Shown: piece after piece, positions 7,197 to 34,695 of the stretch
Position numbering within the stretch: the stretch's first letter is position 1
Layout: the number at the start of each line of letters is the position of its first letter
NCBI GenBank assembly: GCA_964452565.1
Contig: CAYVLY010000002.1
Coordinates: forward strand, 185,166-219,860
Direction of reading: 5' to 3'
From: an uncultured Gammaproteobacteria bacterium
Lineage (GTDB): Bacteria; Patescibacteriota; Patescibacteriia; UBA9934
DNA length: 34,695 nt
Position numbers and translations under genes: made by a program
Notes under the pieces: generated by a model
Seen by the model: the letters and a program-made list of their open reading frames with translations, nothing else
Told to the model about the DNA's origin: nothing
The model's database searches: none

Positions 7197-7200
7197 GGCA

Positions 7201-7229
7201 TTGACTTTTTCACACAAAAATGCTAATTT
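7201..7229 (+). promoter_or_regulatory. Promoter of GC-rich unit B1 (TTGACT-N17-TAATTT)
   Basis: Hexamers at 7201-7206 and 7224-7229 with a 17-nt spacer. Confidence 0.6.
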
Positions 7230-7272
7230 CCCACTGACCTTAGCCGCCCGAGAGGGCAAAGGAGTGAGAGGA

Positions 7273-7722
7273 GTGGAAAGAGAAAGAAAAAAAAGTCTGC
7301 TTGTGAAAGTCGGGCATGCCCACGGCATCGTGAAGCTGACCCGCAATGGACACGGCTTCCTCGTGATCGACAAGAGCATGACTGTCCAGGTGCATCCACC
7401 AGAAACAGTCGCCGAGATCATGGGCAATGCCAGCATCGAGCTGCGGCGAGGCACCCACTGTGACGACCTGATCGTGATTTTCGACAAGGTCGGCAACCGC
7501 GTGCGCGTCAACGGCCTGGTGGCTGTGAGCGAACCCCGCGACCGCGCCGGAGCCTACGAGGAGATCAACCCCCGCCCGCACAGCCACGATGTTCTCTGTG
7601 GCCCAAGTGATGCCGTGCACCACATCAGCATCGTCCGTGGTGACAGAGTGCTCAAGCTCACGCTCAAGTACAGCTGGGGCTATCCGGTCGGCAGCACCGT
7701 GCCCATCAACAAGCGCGGCTAG
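7273..7722 (+). CDS. GC-rich ORFan B1 (about 149 aa)
   Basis: GTG at 7273 preceded by AAGGAG (7259-7264) with an 8-nt spacer. Strong G/C at codon position 3 in this frame. Promoter upstream and terminator downstream. Overlapping minus-strand ORFs read through these signals. Confidence 0.55.
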   Translation: MERERKKSLLVKVGHAHGIVKLTRNGHGFLVIDKSMTVQVHPPETVAEIMGNASIELRRGTHCDDLIVIFDKVGNRVRVNGLVAVSEPRDRAGAYEEINPRPHSHDVLCGPSDAVHHISIVRGDRVLKLTLKYSWGYPVGSTVPINKRG

Positions 7723-7747
7723 CCAGCCCCACGAACCCGTACACCTC

Positions 7748-7786
7748 CACCCCTCGTCTCTTGACGTGGGGTGATCTGCTTTTGTT
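7748..7786 (+). terminator. Intrinsic terminator of B1
   Basis: CACCCC-N14-GGGGTG followed by atctgcttttgtt. Confidence 0.65.
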
Positions 7787-7813
7787 GACATTTACAGCTT
7801 TGGCTGCTAACTT
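7785..7813 (+). promoter_or_regulatory. Promoter of GC-rich unit B2 (TTGACA-N17-TAACTT)
   Basis: Hexamers at 7785-7790 and 7808-7813 with a 17-nt spacer. Confidence 0.6.
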
Positions 7814-7858
7814 CGACACAGCTTAAACCCAAACGCCTTAGCGGTGAAAGGATCGCCA

Positions 7859-8290
7859 ATGCCCCTCCTTCATTCAATTCACTTCTGTGGTCGAGTGGTT
7901 GTCGGCGAAACAGAACCCGCCAACAAAACTAAGATCATTCTCAGTAAAACCACTTCAATCCGTGACGTGTGGCCAGACTACATAGCCAGGGTGATGGGTG
8001 GTCTACGCATAGTCCTGACCCTAACTCCCAGCAGCCTAGTCATCTCTCTACCACAGGACCTGCATGGAAGAGCGGTCAAGTACATGGGCCATATACTGCG
8101 GCCCAACGGGATCACAACAATCAGGCCCTCCAGGGGCATCCATGACCTGACTGTAGTAGCACCTGACGGCTCTTGGCTTGGATTCGATATCTTCTTGGGA
8201 ACCTCCCAGCAGGCTGACGACTTGGTGGACTTGCCTGAGGATGCAAGATACCCCGCGGGAGCCACCCCAGCAACGTCCATGCTTCACTAG
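7859..8290 (+). CDS. GC-rich ORFan B2 (about 143 aa)
   Basis: ATG at 7859 preceded by AAAGGA with a 6-nt spacer (the ORF track starts at the GTG at 7844). Weak hairpin plus T-run at about 8306-8345. Confidence 0.55.
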   Translation: MPLLHSIHFCGRVVVGETEPANKTKIILSKTTSIRDVWPDYIARVMGGLRIVLTLTPSSLVISLPQDLHGRAVKYMGHILRPNGITTIRPSRGIHDLTVVAPDGSWLGFDIFLGTSQQADDLVDLPEDARYPAGATPATSMLH

Positions 8291-8350
8291 CCACCATTTA
8301 CCTCCTCCGCGCCTCGCACATCTCGTGCGGGGCTCATGCTTTTTAAAAAG

Positions 8351-10667: not shown

Positions 10668-10728
10668 CAGTTTCTTTGAGCCAGCAAAGAAACTGGGTCT
10701 GGAGGTTTGGAGGGTGAAACGCCTCCAA
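10668..10728. repeat. 12-bp-stem hairpin fused to the 37-nt repeat
   Basis: CCAGTTTCTTTG-agccag-CAAAGAAACTGG, then 10692-10728, which is identical to 1-37. Confidence 0.8.
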
Positions 10729-14125: not shown

Positions 14126-14152
14126 AAAGACCGGCCGATCGGCCGGTCTTTT
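14126..14152. terminator. Bidirectional hairpin terminator
   Basis: AAAGACCGGCCGATCGGCCGGTCTTT, a perfect palindrome flanked by A-run and T-run. Confidence 0.85.
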
Positions 14153-14157
14153 GATAC

Positions 14158-14210
14158 AAACAACAACGCCCGAGAGGAGTAATCTCAACTCTCGGGCGTA
14201 GTAACGTGAG
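14158..14210 (-). terminator. Cassette 3' module (copy 1): conserved hairpin terminator
   Basis: 14161-14201 is identical to 15966-16006 (41 nt). Minus strand: CACGTTaCTACGCCCGAGAG-loop-CTCTCGGGCG followed by TTGTTGTTTG. Confidence 0.8.
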
Positions 14211-14225
14211 CAGCAGCAGGCTTGC

Positions 14226-14720
14226 TCAGTCAGTGGGATCCTGGCGACCCCCTTCAGAGTTGGGCGGGTCCTCAACCGGGTTGAAAACACCATCCTCTGT
14301 GAGGAGATCCTCTTTATCAACAAGGATTTCACGCTTCAAGTTCTCCGAACCGATCAAGGCGTACACGTCGTACAACGTCCGGGTGTTTGCGTCGTATCGC
14401 CCCGCAATGGATGGCTCCAGCCGGTTATCAGCCGCACTCAGGAACCAACGTCCATCAGGATAAGACGTTAGACCAAGGTTCATTCCAACCGTGACGAGAT
14501 ACGTCGTCAATCCTCGATCAAACAGCAGTAATCTTATGCCCCCACAACTACTGAAACCCGCTCTACTGACCTCATCTTGAAATGCTCGTAGATCGTCCAA
14601 TGTCGCAATGGCTCCATAGGCGCACCTATACAAACACCTCGTTCCGGTTTCATGGGGGGGCTGATCATCCGCAAGTATGGCGGAATGCATTTCCACAACC
14701 CTAACTTTATATTTAGGCAC
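14226..14720 (-). CDS. Cassette payload C1, GC-rich ORFan (164 aa)
   Basis: GTG start 10 nt after GGAAGG within the conserved 5' module. Longest ORF in the unit. No recognisable motif. Confidence 0.6.
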   Translation of the reverse strand: MPKYKVRVVEMHSAILADDQPPHETGTRCLYRCAYGAIATLDDLRAFQDEVSRAGFSSCGGIRLLLFDRGLTTYLVTVGMNLGLTSYPDGRWFLSAADNRLEPSIAGRYDANTRTLYDVYALIGSENLKREILVDKEDLLTEDGVFNPVEDPPNSEGGRQDPTD

Positions 14721-14809
14721 TATTGACTGTCCTTCCGTATTTGCGCCTCTGGGCCTGGTTGAATGAACAGAGAATGAATATAGACGAAAAAAGGTTCTTT
14801 GTCAAGCCT
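14721..14809 (-). promoter_or_regulatory. Cassette 5' module (copy 1): TTGACA-N17-TATATT promoter plus conserved leader
   Basis: -35 at 14800-14805 and -10 at 14777-14782 (minus strand). Leader is CATTCTCTGTTCATTCAACCAGGCCCAGAGGCGCA, then GGAAGG. Confidence 0.75.
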
Positions 14810-14821
14810 AAAGCACAAAAA

Positions 14822-14876
14822 CCAGCGATGAAGCTGGCTATAAAAACAACAACGCCCGAGAGAGAACTCTCGGGCG
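14822..14876 (-). terminator. Cassette 3' module (copy 2): two successive hairpins
   Basis: CGCCCGAGAG-ttct-CTCTCGGGCG (14853-14876) followed by TTGTTGTTTTT, then CCAGC-N6-GCTGG (14822-14837) followed by TTTTT. Confidence 0.75.
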
Positions 14877-14898
14877 CAGGACGGGAATGGTGGTAGGC

Positions 14899-15222
14899 CT
14901 ACTCATGACGGAACAGGTCGCCCTCGATGGGAGACTCACGAAGGCTACGCATGCCTCGGAGGCACATAGTGCCGATCATGATCTGTACGCTGTGGTGATA
15001 AACAGACCACTGCTGTTTCTGAATACGAATCTCGCAGGACCGCGGAAGCTCCATCTCATGCACCGTCTGACGGTCCAGAATGTTGTCGCCGCCATATTCG
15101 ACCACGATGTCAAGATGATCACCCGCGAAGGCACCTACCAACTCGAGGACGGTCGACACCTCCCTGCCCCCCGCAAGAATCCGCATAATTGGGTGAGTGC
15201 TTATTCTCAAAACGCTGGCCAT
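14899..15222 (-). CDS. Cassette payload C2, GC-rich ORFan (107 aa)
   Basis: ATG at 15222 is 8 nt after AAAGGG, downstream of the conserved leader. A 117-aa antisense shadow ORF (14887-15240) exists but is His-rich and lacks signals. Strand chosen from cassette context. Confidence 0.5.
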   Translation of the reverse strand: MASVLRISTHPIMRILAGGREVSTVLELVGAFAGDHLDIVVEYGGDNILDRQTVHEMELPRSCEIRIQKQQWSVYHHSVQIMIGTMCLRGMRSLRESPIEGDLFRHE

Positions 15223-15309
15223 TGCTATGACCCTTTGTGATGCGCCTCTGGGCCTAGGTTGAATGAACAGAGAATGAATATACTTCATTTGGGCCCTTTT
15301 GTCAAGCCT
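15223..15309 (-). promoter_or_regulatory. Cassette 5' module (copy 2)
   Basis: 15241-15309 is identical to 15861-15929 (69 nt). -35 at 15300-15305, -10 at 15277-15282. Confidence 0.8.
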
Positions 15310-15326
15310 TTATGCTATCTTTCTTG

Positions 15327-15364
15327 AAAACAACAACACCCTGTACTACGTCAAGTACAGGGCG
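15327..15364 (-). terminator. Cassette 3' module (copy 3), stem sequence replaced but architecture kept
   Basis: Minus strand: CGCCCTGTACT-tgacgt-AGTACAGGGTG followed by the conserved TTGTTGTTTTC tail. Confidence 0.7.
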
Positions 15365-15443
15365 CGGCCCCGCACCGCGATCGGTACAGGGTGAGATCCA
15401 AGAGGAGCCGGGCTCAACTCTCAAATATGAAGGTGTCTAAAGC

Positions 15444-15842
15444 TCATTCCCGGTCAAGAATTGTCATATCTGACCAGTACAATAACTCACCATTGAGCTC
15501 CTCTGTATCAGGATCGACAAAGCCACGAGCCAATTCGCGTATAGCCCCATCACTGTGCTGCGAATAAAGGCTCCAGCTGCGATCGTGACGAATGGTCATC
15601 GATAGATCTCGTTTGAAAAAGAACATACGATTTCCATCCACCAAGAAGACAATTCGATCAGCGGGATCGTGATCTCCATCAGGCCCCTTGCCGAATAGTG
15701 CTTTTTGAAAATCGACATAGTTTCCAATCGACCACCAATTGTGGATCTCGGGCAAGGCTTTGGATGAAGTCTTGTGCCGCCTTGCCAGATGAATAGCAAC
15801 AATTTTGAAGAGCTCCGCTATAGGTTCCGTGGTGCTGGTCAT
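15444..15842 (-). CDS. Cassette payload C3, GC-rich ORFan (132 aa)
   Basis: ATG at 15842 is 8 nt after GGAAGG. The ORF-track N-terminal extension runs through the promoter and leader and is rejected. No competing plus-strand ORF. Confidence 0.65.
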   Translation of the reverse strand: MTSTTEPIAELFKIVAIHLARRHKTSSKALPEIHNWWSIGNYVDFQKALFGKGPDGDHDPADRIVFLVDGNRMFFFKRDLSMTIRHDRSWSLYSQHSDGAIRELARGFVDPDTEELNGELLYWSDMTILDRE

Positions 15843-15929
15843 TGTACTGACCTTCCGTACTGCGCCTCTGGGCCTAGGTTGAATGAACAGAGAATGAATA
15901 TACTTCATTTGGGCCCTTTTGTCAAGCCT
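15843..15929 (-). promoter_or_regulatory. Cassette 5' module (copy 3)
   Basis: -35 at 15920-15925, -10 at 15897-15902. 69-nt perfect match to copy 2. Confidence 0.8.
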
Positions 15930-15941
15930 GAAGCATGAAAA

Positions 15942-16017
15942 CCAGTAATAAAGCTGGCTAAAAAACAACAACGCCCGAGAGGAGTAATCTCAACTCTCGG
16001 GCGTAGAACGTGGGCAA
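15942..16017 (-). terminator. Cassette 3' module (copy 4): two successive hairpins
   Basis: 15972-16003 hairpin is identical to 14167-14198. Second hairpin CCAGT-N6-GCTGG at 15942-15957. Confidence 0.8.
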
Positions 16018-25075: not shown

Positions 25076-25158
25076 TTGACATTCGGATCACTTTCGGATA
25101 TATTCATTAACCCCCTTCCCAACCCTAGCCAGCGAGGCTTCTCGCTGAAGGAAAAAAC
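25076..25158 (+). promoter_or_regulatory. Promoter and leader of GC-rich unit E; diverged copy of the cassette 5' module
   Basis: TTGACA(25076)-N17-TATATT(25099)CATT... The leader contains CAACCCTAGCCAGCGAGGC (cassette leader has CAACCTAGGCCCAGAGGCGC). GAAGGA lies 6 nt before the ATG. Confidence 0.65.
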
Positions 25159-25527
25159 ATGAACCCCGGTTTCTACGCACTCATTAGCGTCATCCTGATC
25201 TTTGCACTGCTCTGGCTCGGCAATCACGCCTTCAACACCCACTTCAGGAGGCTCTACTACTCTGGGTACAAGGCAATGGTCTTACGAACAATGTATAAAC
25301 TTGGAGCATACACTGGGTCAACGCAGCAAGGTGCCTCATGGGTCACCGCAGACAATGTCAGTGACTCATGCAGGGGCGATGCCCACTTCACGAAGAACCT
25401 GGAGTTTGTGCTCGATCTCATGAGAGAAGATGGTTTGGTCAAAGAAAACGAACATTGGGGGCAAGAGATCTACTGGCTCACTGAGCGGGGACTCGAGGAG
25501 GCCAGGGAACCCTGCTCCGACGCCTGA
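25159..25527 (+). CDS. GC-rich ORFan E: TM anchor plus winged-helix-like domain (tentative)
   Basis: 122 aa. N-terminal hydrophobic helix. C-terminal VLDLMREDGLVKEN...YWLTERGLEEA resembles a wHTH recognition region. Confidence 0.55.
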   Translation: MNPGFYALISVILIFALLWLGNHAFNTHFRRLYYSGYKAMVLRTMYKLGAYTGSTQQGASWVTADNVSDSCRGDAHFTKNLEFVLDLMREDGLVKENEHWGQEIYWLTERGLEEAREPCSDA

Positions 25528-25555
25528 CAGATCACCTATGGTCCTGCTCCTGCGT

Positions 25556-25588
25556 CCCGCGCCACCTCCGGCGCGGGCTTCTGCTTTT
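25556..25588 (+). terminator. Intrinsic terminator of unit E
   Basis: CCCGCGCC-acctcc-GGCGCGGG followed by cttctgctttt. Confidence 0.75.
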
Positions 25589-27460: not shown

Positions 27461-27967
27461 ATGCCAGCAAAAAAACGAAAGACTACAAAACGGAAGGCAG
27501 CTCCAAAAAAACGAAAGGTTGCTAAGAGGAAGCCTGCGAAACGAAAGGTAGTACGGCGAAAAGCTGCTCCTAAGAAGCGAAAGGTCGCTAAGAGAAAGCC
27601 AGCTAAACGCAAAGTAGCAAAGCGAAAGCCTGCGAAGCGTAAGACCACTAAGCGAAAGACAGTAAAACGCAAGGTGACAAAAAAACGCAAGCCAGCTAAA
27701 CGAAAAACTACAAAACGTAAAACAGTAAAGCGAAAGACAACTAAGCGCAAAACTGTTAAGCGGAAAAAAGCTGCTCCTAAGAAGCGAAAGGTCGCTAAGA
27801 GAAAGCCAGCTAAACGCAAAGTAGCAAAGCGAAAGCCTGCGAAGCGTAAGACCACTAAGCGAAAGACAGTAAAACGCAAGGTGACAAAAAAACGCAAGCC
27901 AGCTAAGCGCAAGGTTGCTAAACGCAAACCTGCGAAACGTAAAACTACTCGACGTAAGAAACGTTAG
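27461..27967 (+). CDS. Lys/Arg/Ala/Pro-rich histone H1-like basic repeat protein
   Basis: 168 aa made almost entirely of (A/T/V)KRK(P/T/V)AKRK units. Strong SD GGGAGGTG is 8 nt upstream. The antisense ORF is an artefact of the repeats. Confidence 0.7.
   Translation: MPAKKRKTTKRKAAPKKRKVAKRKPAKRKVVRRKAAPKKRKVAKRKPAKRKVAKRKPAKRKTTKRKTVKRKVTKKRKPAKRKTTKRKTVKRKTTKRKTVKRKKAAPKKRKVAKRKPAKRKVAKRKPAKRKTTKRKTVKRKVTKKRKPAKRKVAKRKPAKRKTTRRKKR
27559..27906 (+). repeat. 141-nt perfect direct repeat (27559-27699 and 27766-27906), period 207 nt, in frame inside the Lys-rich gene
   Basis: Checked base by base: the two copies are identical. The offset of 207 nt equals 69 codons. Confidence 0.9.
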
Positions 27968-30254: not shown

Positions 30255-30859
30255 ACAAAATATCTGTTGATGAATTGACGCGCTGGAATTATGCAGAGCA
30301 ATCCAGCATAGGTAAGTCCCTGCCCAATTGTGAAAACATTGAACACTACACTCTCAGCAAAGTTCCAATACAACCATGCCAGGCAGATAGATACGATGAG
30401 CCAAATTAGTGCACGCAATCTTTTTTCTATCCATACCTCAGCAATAAGCAATAATCCGATGAGCGCGATTACTACAGGTGCCACAGGCAGCATCATAATC
30501 AATAAACTTATGATAAACACGATCCACCGTATGCCACGTGCCACTGAGGCGCTTGCTCCACGAAACTGTCGTGTGAGATAGGATGAAACAAAGACGAGCA
30601 GCATAAGTCCCAACCACATCCACATCATATCTCCCATGCTATCTGTCCAAAGCCCTAAGCTTCTAGCGCCCTGTGTAGTGTCAACAAGTTCCCCAAACCA
30701 CCCAGTGATCAAATATGGTAAAAGTCCGAATACAATCTGGGATATGACTAGGATCAGCATCATGATTGGCGATTGCTTCCATATTCGTAGCGCATTCTTA
30801 CTCCACTTACGCCAAAGTGCCTTGAGATCTGATTCGACCTTGTTTATTGAGAGAATCAT
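30245..30859 (-). CDS. Polytopic membrane protein, unknown function
   Basis: 204 aa with 5-6 hydrophobic helices. Its stop overlaps the EndoQ-like start by 10 nt. TGaTACCAT lies 8 nt upstream of the ATG. Confidence 0.55.
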   Translation of the reverse strand: MILSINKVESDLKALWRKWSKNALRIWKQSPIMMLILVISQIVFGLLPYLITGWFGELVDTTQGARSLGLWTDSMGDMMWMWLGLMLLVFVSSYLTRQFRGASASVARGIRWIVFIISLLIMMLPVAPVVIALIGLLLIAEVWIEKRLRALIWLIVSICLAWLYWNFAESVVFNVFTIGQGLTYAGLLCIIPARQFINRYFVCG

Positions 30860-30950
30860 ATGTGTGTATGGTATCAGACTGATGGAGATCGAACCATTAG
30901 ATAAGGCTCGATGGCAACCACCCCCAACCCCTCCTTGGGAAGGGGGGAGA

Positions 30951-30981
30951 CGAAAACAAAAACAGGCGCTTGTGCGCCCGT
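30951..30981 (-). terminator. Intrinsic terminator after the nucleotidyltransferase gene
   Basis: Minus strand: ACGGGCGC-acaa-GCGCCTGT followed by TTTTTGTTTTC. Confidence 0.7.
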
Positions 30982-30986
30982 CTTTA

Positions 30987-31730
30987 TTATCCTATTAGTT
31001 CTTGTGCTTTTTCCAGCTCTTCTTCCGTGTTGATTCCAATGACCTCAAGTGGCTCTGCTGAGATTGTCGAGATTTCTTCACCTTCTTCGATCGCCATTTC
31101 GACGAGATCAGTTAGGTAATACTCGCCGCTTGCGTTTTTATTTGAAAGTCTTGATAGGTGATCTTTAAGCCAGACTGTATTGAAAGCAAACATCGAAGGA
31201 TTCACCTCTTTTATCTCAAGCTCGGCTTCGGTTGCATCTTTTGCCTCTCGAATAGCCGCAATGCTGCCAACTTCATCCCGAATGATCCGCCCCCACCGCA
31301 CAAAGCCACTATACTCTTTATCATACGATGGAACTGTGGCAGTCACCATTGCAATAACGGTTTGTCCTCCTTCGTACAACTCCTTAAGTTCTTGCATTCT
31401 CTCAGCAGTGAGGAATGGGTGATCGCCATTGAAGACTATTAAACAATCAGCATCTGCAAATGCATTCTCAGCTGAGTGCACAGCATCACCTGTTCCAAGC
31501 TGTTCTTGCTGCATCACATACTCACACTTGTCTCCTAAAACATCACGGAACAGCTCAATGTTATCCGGAGCAATTACAAGAATCGGGCGAGTATCAATTT
31601 CTGAATCGATTATGCTGTCGATGAGATGTTCAATCATTGGACGTCCGGCAATCTCGATAAGTGGCTTTGGGACTTCTCGGCCCATCCGCTTTCCCTGACC
31701 AGCAGCCATCACTAATGCACGTATGCTCAT
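30987..31730 (-). CDS. Sugar-1-phosphate nucleotidyltransferase, GlmU N-terminal-domain-like (no acetyltransferase domain)
   Basis: LVMAAGQGKRMGREVPKPLIEIAGRPMIEH signature. Only 247 aa, so the left-handed beta-helix half of GlmU is absent. Confidence 0.7.
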   Translation of the reverse strand: MSIRALVMAAGQGKRMGREVPKPLIEIAGRPMIEHLIDSIIDSEIDTRPILVIAPDNIELFRDVLGDKCEYVMQQEQLGTGDAVHSAENAFADADCLIVFNGDHPFLTAERMQELKELYEGGQTVIAMVTATVPSYDKEYSGFVRWGRIIRDEVGSIAAIREAKDATEAELEIKEVNPSMFAFNTVWLKDHLSRLSNKNASGEYYLTDLVEMAIEEGEEISTISAEPLEVIGINTEEELEKAQELIG

Positions 31731-31762
31731 AGATAGTTTTTTCTAATTTACGTTCCAGTGCG

Positions 31763-31791
31763 ATAGTACGGTAAATCTTGCTAAAAGTCAA
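31763..31791 (-). promoter_or_regulatory. Promoter TTGACT-N17-TACTAT for the nucleotidyltransferase gene
   Basis: Minus-strand hexamers at 31786-31791 and 31763-31768. Confidence 0.55.
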
Positions 31792-31795
31792 AATG

Positions 31796-32174
31796 AAAAA
31801 CTCGACTGGGGTAGAACCAGCCGAGCTCAAGAGAACTACCTTCCCATGTGTAGTTTAGGTGTTTGCGGTATTTTATCGGGGACTCAACAGCCGAGAGGAT
31901 GGGGTGGAATCTAAATAGCTTTTCCCGATCGGAGTTCCTGTGCAGGACCTCGTCTTACCGGAGCTATAAGCAAGATTTCGACGTATCGGAATCAGCTACC
32001 AGTGCTCTCCACACACATTATCGTCGACCGGGGTCAAACCCGTACTGCAACACCCTTGCTACCGCTGAGACGTACAAAGCATCGCCGGGGCCGCGCCGCA
32101 TGCACGTATGGGGCCACCATCTGCCGGTTTCCAACCGTTGGATGGTGCAGGGAAGGATAGATGTTAAGAGACGA
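31796..32174 (-). ncRNA. Candidate structured non-coding transcript (about 380 nt), class unknown
   Basis: Bounded by a TTGACA-N17-TATATT promoter (32181-32209) and a hairpin plus T5 terminator (31796-31825). No SD-led or convincing ORF on this strand. GC-rich with several helices, e.g. CACCATC...GATGGTG enclosing CGGTT-GGAA-AACCG. Confidence 0.45.
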
Positions 32175-32180
32175 GCAAGT

Positions 32181-32209
32181 AATATACCAAAAACCCTCGA
32201 TTTTGTCAA
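32181..32209 (-). promoter_or_regulatory. Promoter TTGACA-N17-TATATT of the orphan transcript
   Basis: Minus-strand hexamers at 32204-32209 and 32181-32186 with a 17-nt spacer. Same consensus as the cassette promoters. Confidence 0.65.
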
Positions 32210-32240
32210 GGATTGGCCCAGATATAGCATTTTGCACCCA

Positions 32241-32295
32241 AAAAAAGAAGAGGCCGGATCAGCGAGCATGCCATGCATGCTGCTAAACCGGCCTC
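32241..32295 (-). terminator. Intrinsic terminator of unit F
   Basis: Minus strand: GAGGCCGG...(inner AGCATGC/GCATGCT)...CCGGCCTC followed by TTCTTTTTTT. Confidence 0.75.
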
Positions 32296-32319
32296 ACGAA
32301 GAAGTCGAGGGTTGAAGGG

Positions 32320-33492
32320 CTAGTAGCCCCGTTTGCTGCTGCAGTTGAAGAGACCCCCGACATACCGGATGTCGTTTCGCCGATTCGGCATCTGCTGCTC
32401 CAGAGCATCAAACAGATCCTCCCTGATCAGACCCCGCTGCCGGAGCTGCTCAACCACCCTAAACACCACCATATTGAGGGGCTGCGACCACCCAACCGCA
32501 CCACAGATGGATTGGCCTTCAGTCACACCGAACCTCACGAACCGCTGAAGTTCATCTGCACTGCTGAACAGGCTCCTGAAGAGCTCAACCAGCTGTTCCT
32601 GACTGGTTCCGGAACGGCGCATCGTGGACTCGGGGGTGGAGGGCTCGCGCCGCTGAGGCACCGGACGGTCGCTGGCCTGCGTCTGGGCCTTGATCTCGGA
32701 CAGGGGCTTGCTCAACTCCTTGACGGCATCGGCAATCTCTTCCGGGTCGATCCGACCCTGGAAAATCTGCCAGGCACGCGGCAGCTCTTCCGGGACCAGA
32801 ACATCGATGGCTTGGAAGGAGTTGGTGATGCCGGATACGCAGACTTCACACCTGCGCCTGGCCAGGAGGAAGAGCGCACGAAGGTTCACGGACACATCGC
32901 TCCAGTCGGCGCCATCATCATCCACGCCGTCGTCGAGCGCAGCCACTTCACCCACTGATCTCTTCCAGGGATCCAGCTCCACGATCTCGTTGTCCTCGGT
33001 GATCGCAAGGGGACTCACAACCGGCATGGTGCCCATGTAGAACACGATGCTCGAGCCAGGGCCCTTGAGCTGCCAGAACCTCTTGGTGGTCTCGGGATCG
33101 TACTCCCCGCCAACCTTGTTCAGCACCACGCAGAGATCCATGTTGGCGAGCCTCTGGGCCGCCCGCTTCTTGTCCTTTGTGGGACGCTTCGGATCGGCCA
33201 GGACATCGGCGAGCTCCTCGGAATCCATCATGTGGATCTCCTTGGGTCCCTTCTCGAGGTTGACCGTGATCTCCGAAGGCATCGCCGGCGGAGCAGAGGC
33301 CACAGGCGGAGCCGCAGCCTCGGGATTGAGCCTGCCCACGACCTCGTAGGCCACGAACTCAGGAACTTCGAGCTTGGTCAGTTGACCCACCCTGAGGAAC
33401 TTGAGCCGATCCTCAGTGAGACCCATTTCGATCAGGCTGTCCGCCTGCTCTTCGGTGAGACCTGCATCCATCAGTTTCTTTTTGAAAGTCAT
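32320..33492 (-). CDS. GC-rich 390-aa protein with C-terminal effector-associated-domain (EAD, death-like) resemblance
   Basis: ATG is 8 nt after AAAGGA. The C-terminal about 90 aa (EQLVELFRSLFSSADELQRFVRFG...LNMVVFRVVEQLRQRGLIREDLFDALEQQMPNRRNDI) fits the helical EAD pattern as remembered. Pro/Ala linker after an N-terminal helical module. Confidence 0.6.
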   Translation of the reverse strand: MTFKKKLMDAGLTEEQADSLIEMGLTEDRLKFLRVGQLTKLEVPEFVAYEVVGRLNPEAAAPPVASAPPAMPSEITVNLEKGPKEIHMMDSEELADVLADPKRPTKDKKRAAQRLANMDLCVVLNKVGGEYDPETTKRFWQLKGPGSSIVFYMGTMPVVSPLAITEDNEIVELDPWKRSVGEVAALDDGVDDDGADWSDVSVNLRALFLLARRRCEVCVSGITNSFQAIDVLVPEELPRAWQIFQGRIDPEEIADAVKELSKPLSEIKAQTQASDRPVPQRREPSTPESTMRRSGTSQEQLVELFRSLFSSADELQRFVRFGVTEGQSICGAVGWSQPLNMVVFRVVEQLRQRGLIREDLFDALEQQMPNRRNDIRYVGGLFNCSSKRGY

Positions 33493-33687
33493 TACAACTT
33501 TCCTTTTGCGTTTTCCCTAAGGGGGCACTTTTCGACCCTTCCCTTTCCCGTGTGGTCACGTTACGGCCAATACACCGTAAACGCGAAAGCTCTATGTAGC
33601 CAAAACTACACACAACATTCGCGTTTACATAGCCTCTTACCTTATAAAAGAACGGTTGATAATAGCATAGGAAATACTACTTGTCAA
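33493..33687 (-). promoter_or_regulatory. Promoter TTGACA-N17-TATTAT plus about 160-nt structured leader of unit F
   Basis: Minus-strand hexamers at 33682-33687 and 33659-33664. The leader contains an 11-bp perfect stem (33577-33587 / 33618-33628) with a competing CTATGTA/TACATAG pairing. Confidence 0.6.
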
Positions 33688-33738
33688 TCCCTATACTATC
33701 AAAAAAATACTAAAATTCGCCGAAAACAAAAAATCTCC

Positions 33739-33857
33739 ATTATTCCGGCGACCACCTACTCTCGCCCTTCTGGACTACCATCGGCCCTACAGGCTTAACT
33801 TCCGTGTTCGGGATGGAAACGGGTGTGGCCCTGCAGGAAATGCCACCAGAATAATGG
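33739..33857 (-). rRNA. rrf: 5S rRNA
   Basis: Reverse complement reads ...CCCGTTTCCATCCCGAACACGGAAGTTAAGCC...GGGCGAGAGTAGGTGGTCGCCGG, with terminal helix TTATTCTGGTGGC / GTCGCCGGAATAA. Confidence 0.9.
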
Positions 33858-33939
33858 AGACTTTTAAAGCCTAATCTGATTGAATTTAGGGTCAAAATCA
33901 TTGAAATCATCTTTTACCATAAACGCCTTAAGCGAGTGG

Positions 33940-34695
<756 letters not shown>

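Follow-up and report, generated by a model that had tools for sequence, protein, structure and literature searches.

Among the described bacterial RNAs, several classes come near to the RNA gene treated here. The 6S RNA and the mycobacterial Ms1 RNA have a strong promoter of their own and paired 5' and 3' ends, with the structure kept while the sequence drifts; in the rRNA processing stalks and boxA leaders, a long-range flank helix encloses a structured RNA; in the riboswitch and T-box leaders, a metabolic gene is preceded by a multi-stem domain closed by helix P1 and then by an intrinsic terminator. The C-rich small RNAs (sRNAs) of Gram-positive bacteria, such as RsaE/RoxS and those of the RNAIII-loop type, are stand-alone genes with a Rho-independent terminator and a conserved CCUCC/UCCC-like pyrimidine motif, while in the retron msr-msd and other non-coding RNAs (ncRNAs) associated with reverse transcriptase (RT), inverted repeats at the two ends pair with each other and enclose a structured interior that is hypervariable. 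These likenesses are met in a unit from the Candidate Phyla Radiation (CPR), of whose regulatory and structural RNAs, to our knowledge, almost nothing is known, because the organisms are uncultured and the curated RNA families have been built from other phyla. The DNA analysed (34,695 nt, hereafter the window) is a chromosomal stretch of Candidatus Uhrbacteria (Patescibacteria/CPR); the closest relatives of its genes are found in Uhrbacteria metagenome-assembled genomes, and most of its large open reading frames (ORFs) are housekeeping genes. The unit in question, flagged by a first-pass annotation made from the sequence alone, occupies 32209-31796 of the minus strand, promoter included, between a gene for an EAD1-domain protein and a glmU-like gene. 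It is very probably a real ncRNA gene of a new family, although of a familiar kind, i.e., a lineage-specific stand-alone structured sRNA absent from Rfam, and the joint claim, that the stretch is a real stand-alone ncRNA gene acting in trans, is favoured with less assurance.

The first-pass annotation had placed a TTGACA-N17-TATATT promoter at the head of the unit and a hairpin with TTTTT about 380 nt further on, and both signals were confirmed. The promoter (32181-32209, minus strand, as are all further features of the unit) is of the sigma-70 type with an extended -10 element and 11 of 12 consensus matches, being composed of the -35 box TTGACA (32209-32204), a 17-nt spacer with the upstream TG (32189-32188) and the -10 box TATATT (32186-32181); it is one of the two best-scoring such sites within 30500-34000. 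Its region gives a 59-nt BLAST match to the nearest genome, L002, with 88% identity (E = 2e-14), and the same layout, with the family form TTGACA, 17-nt spacer, TGnTATAnT, is present in all seven other full-length members described below. The -35 box is overlapped by a hairpin with a T-run after it (32192-32214), scored as terminator-like, which also folds in the loci L002, L048, L053, L050 and L098 with stem sequences differing around the fixed TTGAC, and which has the appearance of a terminator, that of the upstream unit, merged with the promoter of the RNA. The intrinsic terminator of the RNA itself (31796-31828) consists of the hairpin GAGCUCGGCUGG-UUCUACC-CCAGUCGAGUUU, with a 12-pair stem at 31828-31798, and the U-run (TTTTT). 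With the start inferred at about 32176, some 7 nt after the -10 box, and the end of the U-run at 31796, the transcript is 381 nt long. The U-run is adjoined by the separate promoter of the glmU-like gene (TTGACT-17-TACTAT, 31763-31791), which marks the 3' boundary of the unit; its form TTGACW-N17-TACTAT is conserved in relatives both with and without the RNA, and every relative has retained this promoter of the glmU-like gene downstream of the RNA terminator.

In the window, the minus strand carries in order the 23S rRNA (34695-33937) and 5S rRNA (33850-33743) genes, the EAD1 gene (33492-32320), the RNA unit, the glmU-like gene for an NTP-transferase (nucleotidyltransferase) of 247 aa (31730-30987) and, beyond it, the genes for a 204-aa protein and for a 421-aa PHP-type protein. 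Since the EAD protein has no close relatives, the search for homologous loci (designated L002 and so on) was walked in from the conserved neighbour genes, and the contigs were chosen by the PHP gene and then by the closest glmU-like proteins. Thus, full-length relatives of the RNA were found in L002/L044, L046, L047, L048, L049, L053 and L050/L051, i.e., seven versions from six independent lineages, and the 3' ends only in L045 and L004; the relatives' RNAs measure 249-340 nt vs 381 nt in the window. All occupy the same slot, from the 23S-5S rRNA genes through the RNA to the glmU-like gene, in related Candidatus Uhrbacteria, and the glmU-like protein of every RNA-bearing lineage is at least 70% identical to that of the window. 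Among the ten sampled lineages with such a protein, nine have kept the RNA (eight with full or partial copies, and the window). It is absent from the locus in L052 (glmU-like protein 70% identical), L098 (61%), L097 (60%) and Uhrbacteria further removed. To judge from the loci recovered through the PHP gene, Uhrbacteria ancestrally had the 23S-5S genes followed by the glmU-like gene, and the gap between the 5S and glmU-like genes varies from 44 nt to 4.6 kb, with different genes in each lineage. In the wider collections, the exact 5'-end motif was found in the GTDB genomes and JGI metagenomes only in L002/L044, the JGI match being of the same organism; the motif scans of 185,579 GTDB species genomes returned the family only in L002, the viral contigs gave neither the promoter motif of the RNA nor a member, and the whole island, compared by blastn with phage and plasmid collections, found no match there. 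A generic promoter+CTCGT scan produced 44 matches, of which the six candidate CPR loci inspected proved to be ordinary promoters of other genes, and the six matches to a P1+linker pattern in GTDB and the viral contigs were stretches of unrelated phyla with neither promoter nor terminator. Judging by these sequence searches, the family appears confined so far to one subclade of Candidatus Uhrbacteria; the literature searches brought up no account of an RNA of this sort.

The folded transcript reaches a minimum free energy (MFE) of -136.7 kcal/mol (z = -3.1), which none of 100 shuffles equalled. It begins with the 5' tail GCUCGUCUCUUAACAU (32161-32176), unpaired in the MFE structure and identical over its first 13 nt in L002; the tails of L046 and L047 are related (..CUUAGCA), and those of L049, L053 and L050 are shorter and different. 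The pyrimidine-rich strand that follows, CUA(U)CCUUCCCUG (32148-32160), is paired both in the MFE structure and by duplexfold (partner 31850-31836, -15.2 kcal/mol) with the purine-rich strand CA(U)GGGAAGGUAG (31836-31850) near the 3' end, and this helix, P1, encloses the hairpin P2 (CACCAUC...CGGUU-GGA-AACCG...GAUGGUG, 32115-32147) and the long branched rod domain P3 (31855-32063), so that the minimal predicted shape is a three-way junction. A hairpin stands directly after the 5' strand of P1 in every member, with unrelated P2 sequences, and only the longer members (window, L048) have, in their MFE shapes, the extra hairpin P2b (32071-32106). Within P3, the weakly conserved motif GCUGAUUCCGAU (31996-31985) pairs with AUCGGGAAAAGC (31929-31918) in the MFE structure, and its forms GCUGAUUCGG / GCUGAAUCGG / AUGAUUCGC recur in L046, L047 and L049/L053. 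Between P1 and the terminator lies the pyrimidine linker UUCUCUU (31829-31835; family consensus nCUUCU, conserved in all members), which can form with the purine strand a small GGA-loop hairpin alternative to P1. The predicted shape shared by the members is [[][]][], with extra branches in the longer ones; their interiors of 172-299 nt, GC-enriched at 0.48-0.55 also in the genomes lacking the EAD gene, fold with z-scores of -0.2 to -4.8 against shuffles, six of the eight at or below -1.9. Some of the helices named in the first-pass annotation belong to this fold: TCGACG/CGTCGA is in the MFE structure, and CACCATC/GATGGTG is real, being P2, although its cap CGGTT-GGA-AACCG has a 3-nt loop and is not a GNRA tetraloop. 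The pair AACTAC-N10-GTAGTT exists as well, but its loop contains the 3' strand of P1, the helix with phylogenetic support, with which it competes, and the long-range CTCGTCT/AGACGAG pairing had to be given up, as it is not in the MFE structure and is absent from L002 despite the identical 5' end.

The conservation of the RNA is concentrated at its ends. The window and L002 have in common the promoter, the first 13 transcribed bases and CAUGGGAAGG, and their terminator stems differ by three compensatory pairs. The pyrimidine strand of P1, located 12-30 nt from the start, reads CCUUCCC, UUCCUCCUU, UCCUCUCCU or UUUCCCCUU across the members, and P1 forms in every one of them (-12.9 to -18.7 kcal/mol). 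Because MAFFT gave P1 and the terminators different registers in each lineage, P1 was evaluated on a hand-registered mini-alignment of the family and the terminator on a model-fitted alignment. In the former, 93.7% of the P1 cells are paired and six of nine pairs change on both sides; the covariation score was reached by none of 500 shuffles and collapsed in the slid-register controls. In the latter, which includes one reverse-strand match of the palindromic stem, 97.3% of the cells are paired and nine of eleven pairs are compensatory, likewise matched by 0 of 500 shuffles. The terminator loop is partly conserved, UUCUACC being identical in the window and L047, and the P3 of L049 vs L053 shows five compensatory pairs and none broken. 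The 3' module, which runs from the purine strand through the nCUUCU linker to the hairpin with its U-run, was made into a covariance model, R1, with L002, L046 and L047 as the only training sequences; this model ranked the window segment 31854-31796 (minus), which contains the 3' strand of P1, first in 265 kb at 34.2 bits (E about 8e-7, the E-values being rough owing to a short calibration), with no second match in the window and L045, L048, L049, L053 and L050 next. The interiors have a pairwise identity of 39-54% outside the close pair L049/L053 and are barely alignable; no interior k-mer is common to most lineages, and the only shared interior stretch is the segment GCUGAUUCCG...CGGGA, a weak motif of the form GCUGAUUCSG ... 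YGGA seen in the window, L046, L047 and L049/L053. As a separate observation on P1, the RNA of L050 (2453-2744) carries an internal 14-mer, ACAUGGGAAGGUAG, identical to the 3' strand of P1 in the window, and a second, terminal purine strand, AAGGGGAAA, so that its 5' pyrimidine strand has two possible partners.

Set against the described systems, the RNA departs from each of them. The size of Ms1, about 300 nt, overlaps the range of the family; however, the three-way junction predicted here (P1/P2/P3) differs from 6S, a rod with a central bubble, no Rfam 6S match was obtained, and the RNA occurs in one small clade, whereas 6S is near-universal. With the rRNA processing stalks and boxA leaders it shares the position adjoining the 23S-5S genes, and the 5' tails of the window, L002, L046, L047 and L048 (CUCUUAACA, CUUAGCA, CAUUGAAAA) seem, at the level of sequence, similar to the familiar boxA consensus; the 5' tail also resembles the motif CUUUGAAC of the 23S leaders of L006-L008. 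The boxA-like tail, with its putative Nus binding, is nevertheless absent from L049, L053 and L050, and, unlike a stalk, the RNA has its own promoter and intrinsic terminator and encloses an RNA that is not conserved as rRNA is. In the three loci just mentioned (L006 1-680, L007 2300-2714, L008 2650-3095), the 23S-5S operon has its own promoter with no 16S gene upstream, the 23S leaders carry the shared motif CUUUGAAC(C/U)UUCACAAUUGAA, and a group I intron (Rfam, 72 bits) lies within the 23S gene of L007. In contrast to the riboswitch and T-box leaders, the RNA has neither a conserved core nor an antiterminator that excludes the terminator, and the downstream gene has its own promoter. The pyrimidine motif, loop-exposed in the C-rich sRNAs, is locked here in a helix of 8-12 bp; the RNA is 3-4 times longer than they are, and the likeness of the purine strand to a Shine-Dalgarno (SD) sequence is not maintained (GGGAAGG, GGAGAGG, AAGGGG). 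As regards the retrons, no RT was detected among the scanned window ORFs, with no RVT domain in the 34 taken (all minus-strand ORFs at most 5.7 kb from the RNA and 28 other large ones); bAvd/RT genes stand several kb off in L049, L052 and L097 only, and the position of the RNA is fixed by the rRNA operon, not by an RT.

The autonomous transcription unit would yield a folded non-coding RNA with both ends clamped, and, as P1 and the terminator provide the clamps, the RNA would be expected to be abundant and stable. The conserved end-proximal module (5' tail, P1, linker and terminator loop), together with the semi-conserved internal loop of P3, may constitute the functional surface, which would bind a protein or the ribosome or else base-pair, while the arms could drift freely provided the folding persists. 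That the RNA acts in trans rather than as a leader is a judgement, which we consider somewhat the better supported; that its role is more specifically to bind a protein or the ribosome as a scaffold, and not to regulate as an antisense RNA, is a tentative and rather doubtful proposal. A bolder and improbable extension is that CPR bacteria, whose lineage is noted for its missing ribosomal proteins, have here a new kind of accessory RNA linked to the rRNA operon: transcribed from an rrn-like promoter beside the 23S-5S genes, its boxA-like 5' tail would recruit Nus factors, these would help to close the stalk-like polypyrimidine/polypurine helix, and the three-way-junction RNA would join the ribosome or the translation apparatus; what speaks for it is confined to where the gene lies, to P1 as a stalk and to the partial likeness of the tail to boxA. 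Several specific functions and structures were considered and rejected: the SD/anti-SD mimicry as the selected feature of P1, since GGAGG is lost in three of the four P1 types; a Y.R-Y triplex involving either the linker or the tail, for which the strand polarity or sequence is unfit; a K-turn at the UGAUUC internal loop, where the GA dinucleotides are misplaced; a leader peptide after the SD-like purine strand, as L002, L046 and L048 have no start codon there; and targets complementary to the 5' tail within the window, found at chance level only.

Several points weigh against the interpretation as a trans-acting RNA family. Most Uhrbacteria, L052 among them, lack the RNA, which is therefore dispensable; the sampling is thin, with only seven independent lineages. 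An nhmmer sequence profile of four members misses the window, L002, L048 and L050, so that the homology of the window's interior is carried by the synteny, by the promoter and both end modules, and by a single short motif. The register of P1 was set by hand, and all its covariations are C-G<->U-A transitions on a shallow tree, so that the strict strand asymmetry may reflect a mutational path and not selection. The start site and the termination efficiency are deduced from sequence only, and the short U-runs (CUUU) in the terminators of L002 and L046 may permit read-through into the glmU-like gene.

This last point bears on the main competing explanation, in which the stretch controls the glmU-like gene in cis, as its 5' leader or attenuator, with transcription stopping at the hairpin or reading through according to whether P1 or the alternative hairpin of the purine strand and linker is formed. 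The RNA always stands immediately upstream of this gene in the same orientation, its layout, in which an intrinsic terminator comes after a multi-helix domain closed by P1, is riboswitch-like, the small hairpin with the CUUCU linker is possible, and the U-runs of L002 and L046 are weak. However, the alternative hairpin sits beside the terminator without overlapping it, so that the two are not mutually exclusive as terminator and antiterminator; the lineages have no conserved interior nucleotides in common, unlike any ligand- or tRNA-binding aptamer; the conserved promoter of the glmU-like gene comes right after the terminator and is found in the RNA-less relatives too; in L050 that promoter lies about 290 nt beyond the RNA, across a spacer with further hairpins; and in most Uhrbacteria the glmU-like gene begins only 44-200 nt after the 5S gene. 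A leader is therefore unlikely. It is still less probable that some housekeeping or global RNA already described, the likeliest being an RNA polymerase-binding one of the 6S-like or Ms1-like kind, is present here in a highly divergent form invisible to the Rfam models, a view for which the strong, constitutive-looking promoter, the paired 5' and 3' ends, a structure far better kept than the sequence and, as far as we know, the poor representation of CPR RNAs in the curated families may be adduced. Rfam 15 gave nothing at gathering score for the RNA region and nothing at E<=10 within 31600-32400, the single match of the permissive scan being a chance snoRNA outside the RNA; no family matched the six homologous loci at E<=5, and ARAGORN found no tmRNA. 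These scans for 6S, SRP, RNase P, tmRNA and other families agree with the first-pass annotation, which had looked for the signatures of the four named RNAs in the sequence and seen none. The predicted three-way junction is also not a rod with a large central bubble, the RNA is missing at the locus in most Uhrbacteria, as a housekeeping RNA would not be, and the motif scans gave no member in the other GTDB species genomes.

The first-pass annotation had left three options, a partner RNA of the EAD-like gene, a decayed cassette and an unknown ncRNA class, of which the last is now favoured. Non-functional DNA, either a decayed gene or cassette or a drifting spacer retaining a promoter in a variable rRNA-adjacent slot, accords with the varying length and gene content of the slot, with L098, where the same promoter module drives a 133-aa ORFan, with the several GC-rich ORFan units and the private EAD insertion of the window, and with the almost unalignable interior. 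It is contradicted by the compensatory changes that maintain P1, the terminator and P3, by a promoter, linker and terminator loop kept where neutral DNA at such divergence would be randomised, by the retention of the RNA in the nine lineages counted above, and by the lack of protein-level similarity to the L098 ORF or among the members (an origin from the L098 ORFan was rejected likewise, there being no similarity), so that decay is very improbable. A protein-coding gene would have to be either the 150-aa plus-strand ORF (31863-32315) or a small sense peptide. The plus-strand ORF exists, within a stop-free frame of 153 codons, and an antisense run as long occurs in just 1.65% of dinucleotide shuffles of the region; L048 has a sense ORF of 73 codons. 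In the homologues, however, the antisense stop-free runs are only 45-87 codons and the sense start-to-stop ORFs 19-73 codons, with no shared peptide; no ORF is conserved among the members on either strand, a tblastx signal being confined to the close pair L049/L053, which differ by frame-breaking indels of 1 and 2 nt. The 150-aa ORF moreover opposes the RNA promoter and terminator, crosses the terminator of the EAD gene and, like the region, has no Pfam or PADLOC matches; it is a feature of one GC-rich sequence, unique to the window, and its earlier dismissal holds. As to the sense strand, the reported limit of 28 codons without an SD is right for ATG starts, but one TTG ORF reaches 38 codons, also with no SD. 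Coding is thus highly improbable. The idea that the RNA serves the adjacent EAD1-domain protein as partner or guide was prompted by its directly following the EAD1 gene on the same strand in the window and by a supposedly same composition. In fact, the guanine-cytosine content (GC) is 0.535 for the RNA vs 0.46 for the window and 0.60 for the EAD1 gene, and, as noted, the interiors are enriched also where this gene is lacking. Among the seven other full-length members, five are readable back to the 5S gene (L002, L046, L049, L053 and L050/L051), and none of the five carries an EAD gene, which defeats the partner idea; L047 and L048 were excluded from the count, as their contigs start at the RNA promoter. 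Furthermore, the EAD gene has its own promoter and terminator, and its family is rare, with only distant relatives, making this explanation exceedingly improbable.

The product of the EAD1 gene has 390 aa and carries at its C-terminus an EAD1 domain, which Pfam recognises with E = 7e-5, slightly short of the gathering score. Its strong promoter is located at 33687-33659, and the leader of about 160 nt (5' untranslated region, 33493-33655) contains a 23-nt inverted repeat (33577-33628). No relatives of the protein were detected by the word-indexed protein search or in the GTDB genomes, and the exhaustive HMMER search brought up only distant ones, full-length and about a dozen in number, with identities of 24-33%; in the window, no STAND NTPase was seen that could be a partner. 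The gene is an insertion private to the genome of the window, in the variable slot between the 5S gene and the RNA promoter, and in this it is comparable to the window's further GC-rich ORFan units.

The same slot holds other elements in the related loci. In L002, the last ~30 nt of the 5S gene with a T-run are duplicated (1414-1441 and 1578-1606) around a 135-nt insert, which resembles the att-site duplication left by an integrated element. A tandem element of ~100 nt (GCGUUGUCG - stem - CACCGUACUAACCCAGUACGCCUCG - stem' - CUCCUAG), matched by no Rfam family, is found in L049 (2100-2500), L053 (370-560) and L052 (1-160) between the 5S gene and the RNA promoter. In L098 (700-1200), the module of a hairpin over the -35 box drives the 133-aa ORFan, followed by a terminator and the glmU-like promoter, the signals of the slot being kept while its content changes. 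GC-rich, apparently non-coding stretches of ~250 nt occupy the same position upstream of the glmU-like gene in L038 (2220-2470) and L006 (4780-5000); in L038, a GUCCUCC...GGAGGAC pair encloses hairpins and no promoter is recognisable. Both stretches may be degenerate or unrelated RNAs.

Elsewhere in the window, GC-rich (0.55-0.58) small ORFans lie between the housekeeping genes at 7200-8333 (+), 14150-16010 (-) and 25076-25577 (+), each unit with a near-consensus promoter, its own hairpin terminator and no Pfam match; the three minus-strand units of 14150-16010 have identical promoters within direct repeats of 26-96 nt and a repeated 44-nt terminator. An ORF of 15-nt periodic repeats (27461-27967, +) encodes a low-complexity protein rich in Lys/Arg/Ala and includes a 189-nt segment duplicated at 90% identity, and an exact 37-nt direct repeat with a terminator-like hairpin (GGAGG-GTGAAACG-CCTCC) is present at 1-37 and 10692-10728.

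The family described is narrow, belonging to one subclade and dispensable in the sister lineages, and is an entry for the RNA catalogue rather than a surprise. The tempting link between the RNA and the EAD1 conflict-system domain has been corrected. What is gained is a concrete ncRNA family of the CPR, with end-helix covariation, defined transcription signals, eight full sequences and a fixed genomic address, which can be sought directly in groundwater metatranscriptomes.

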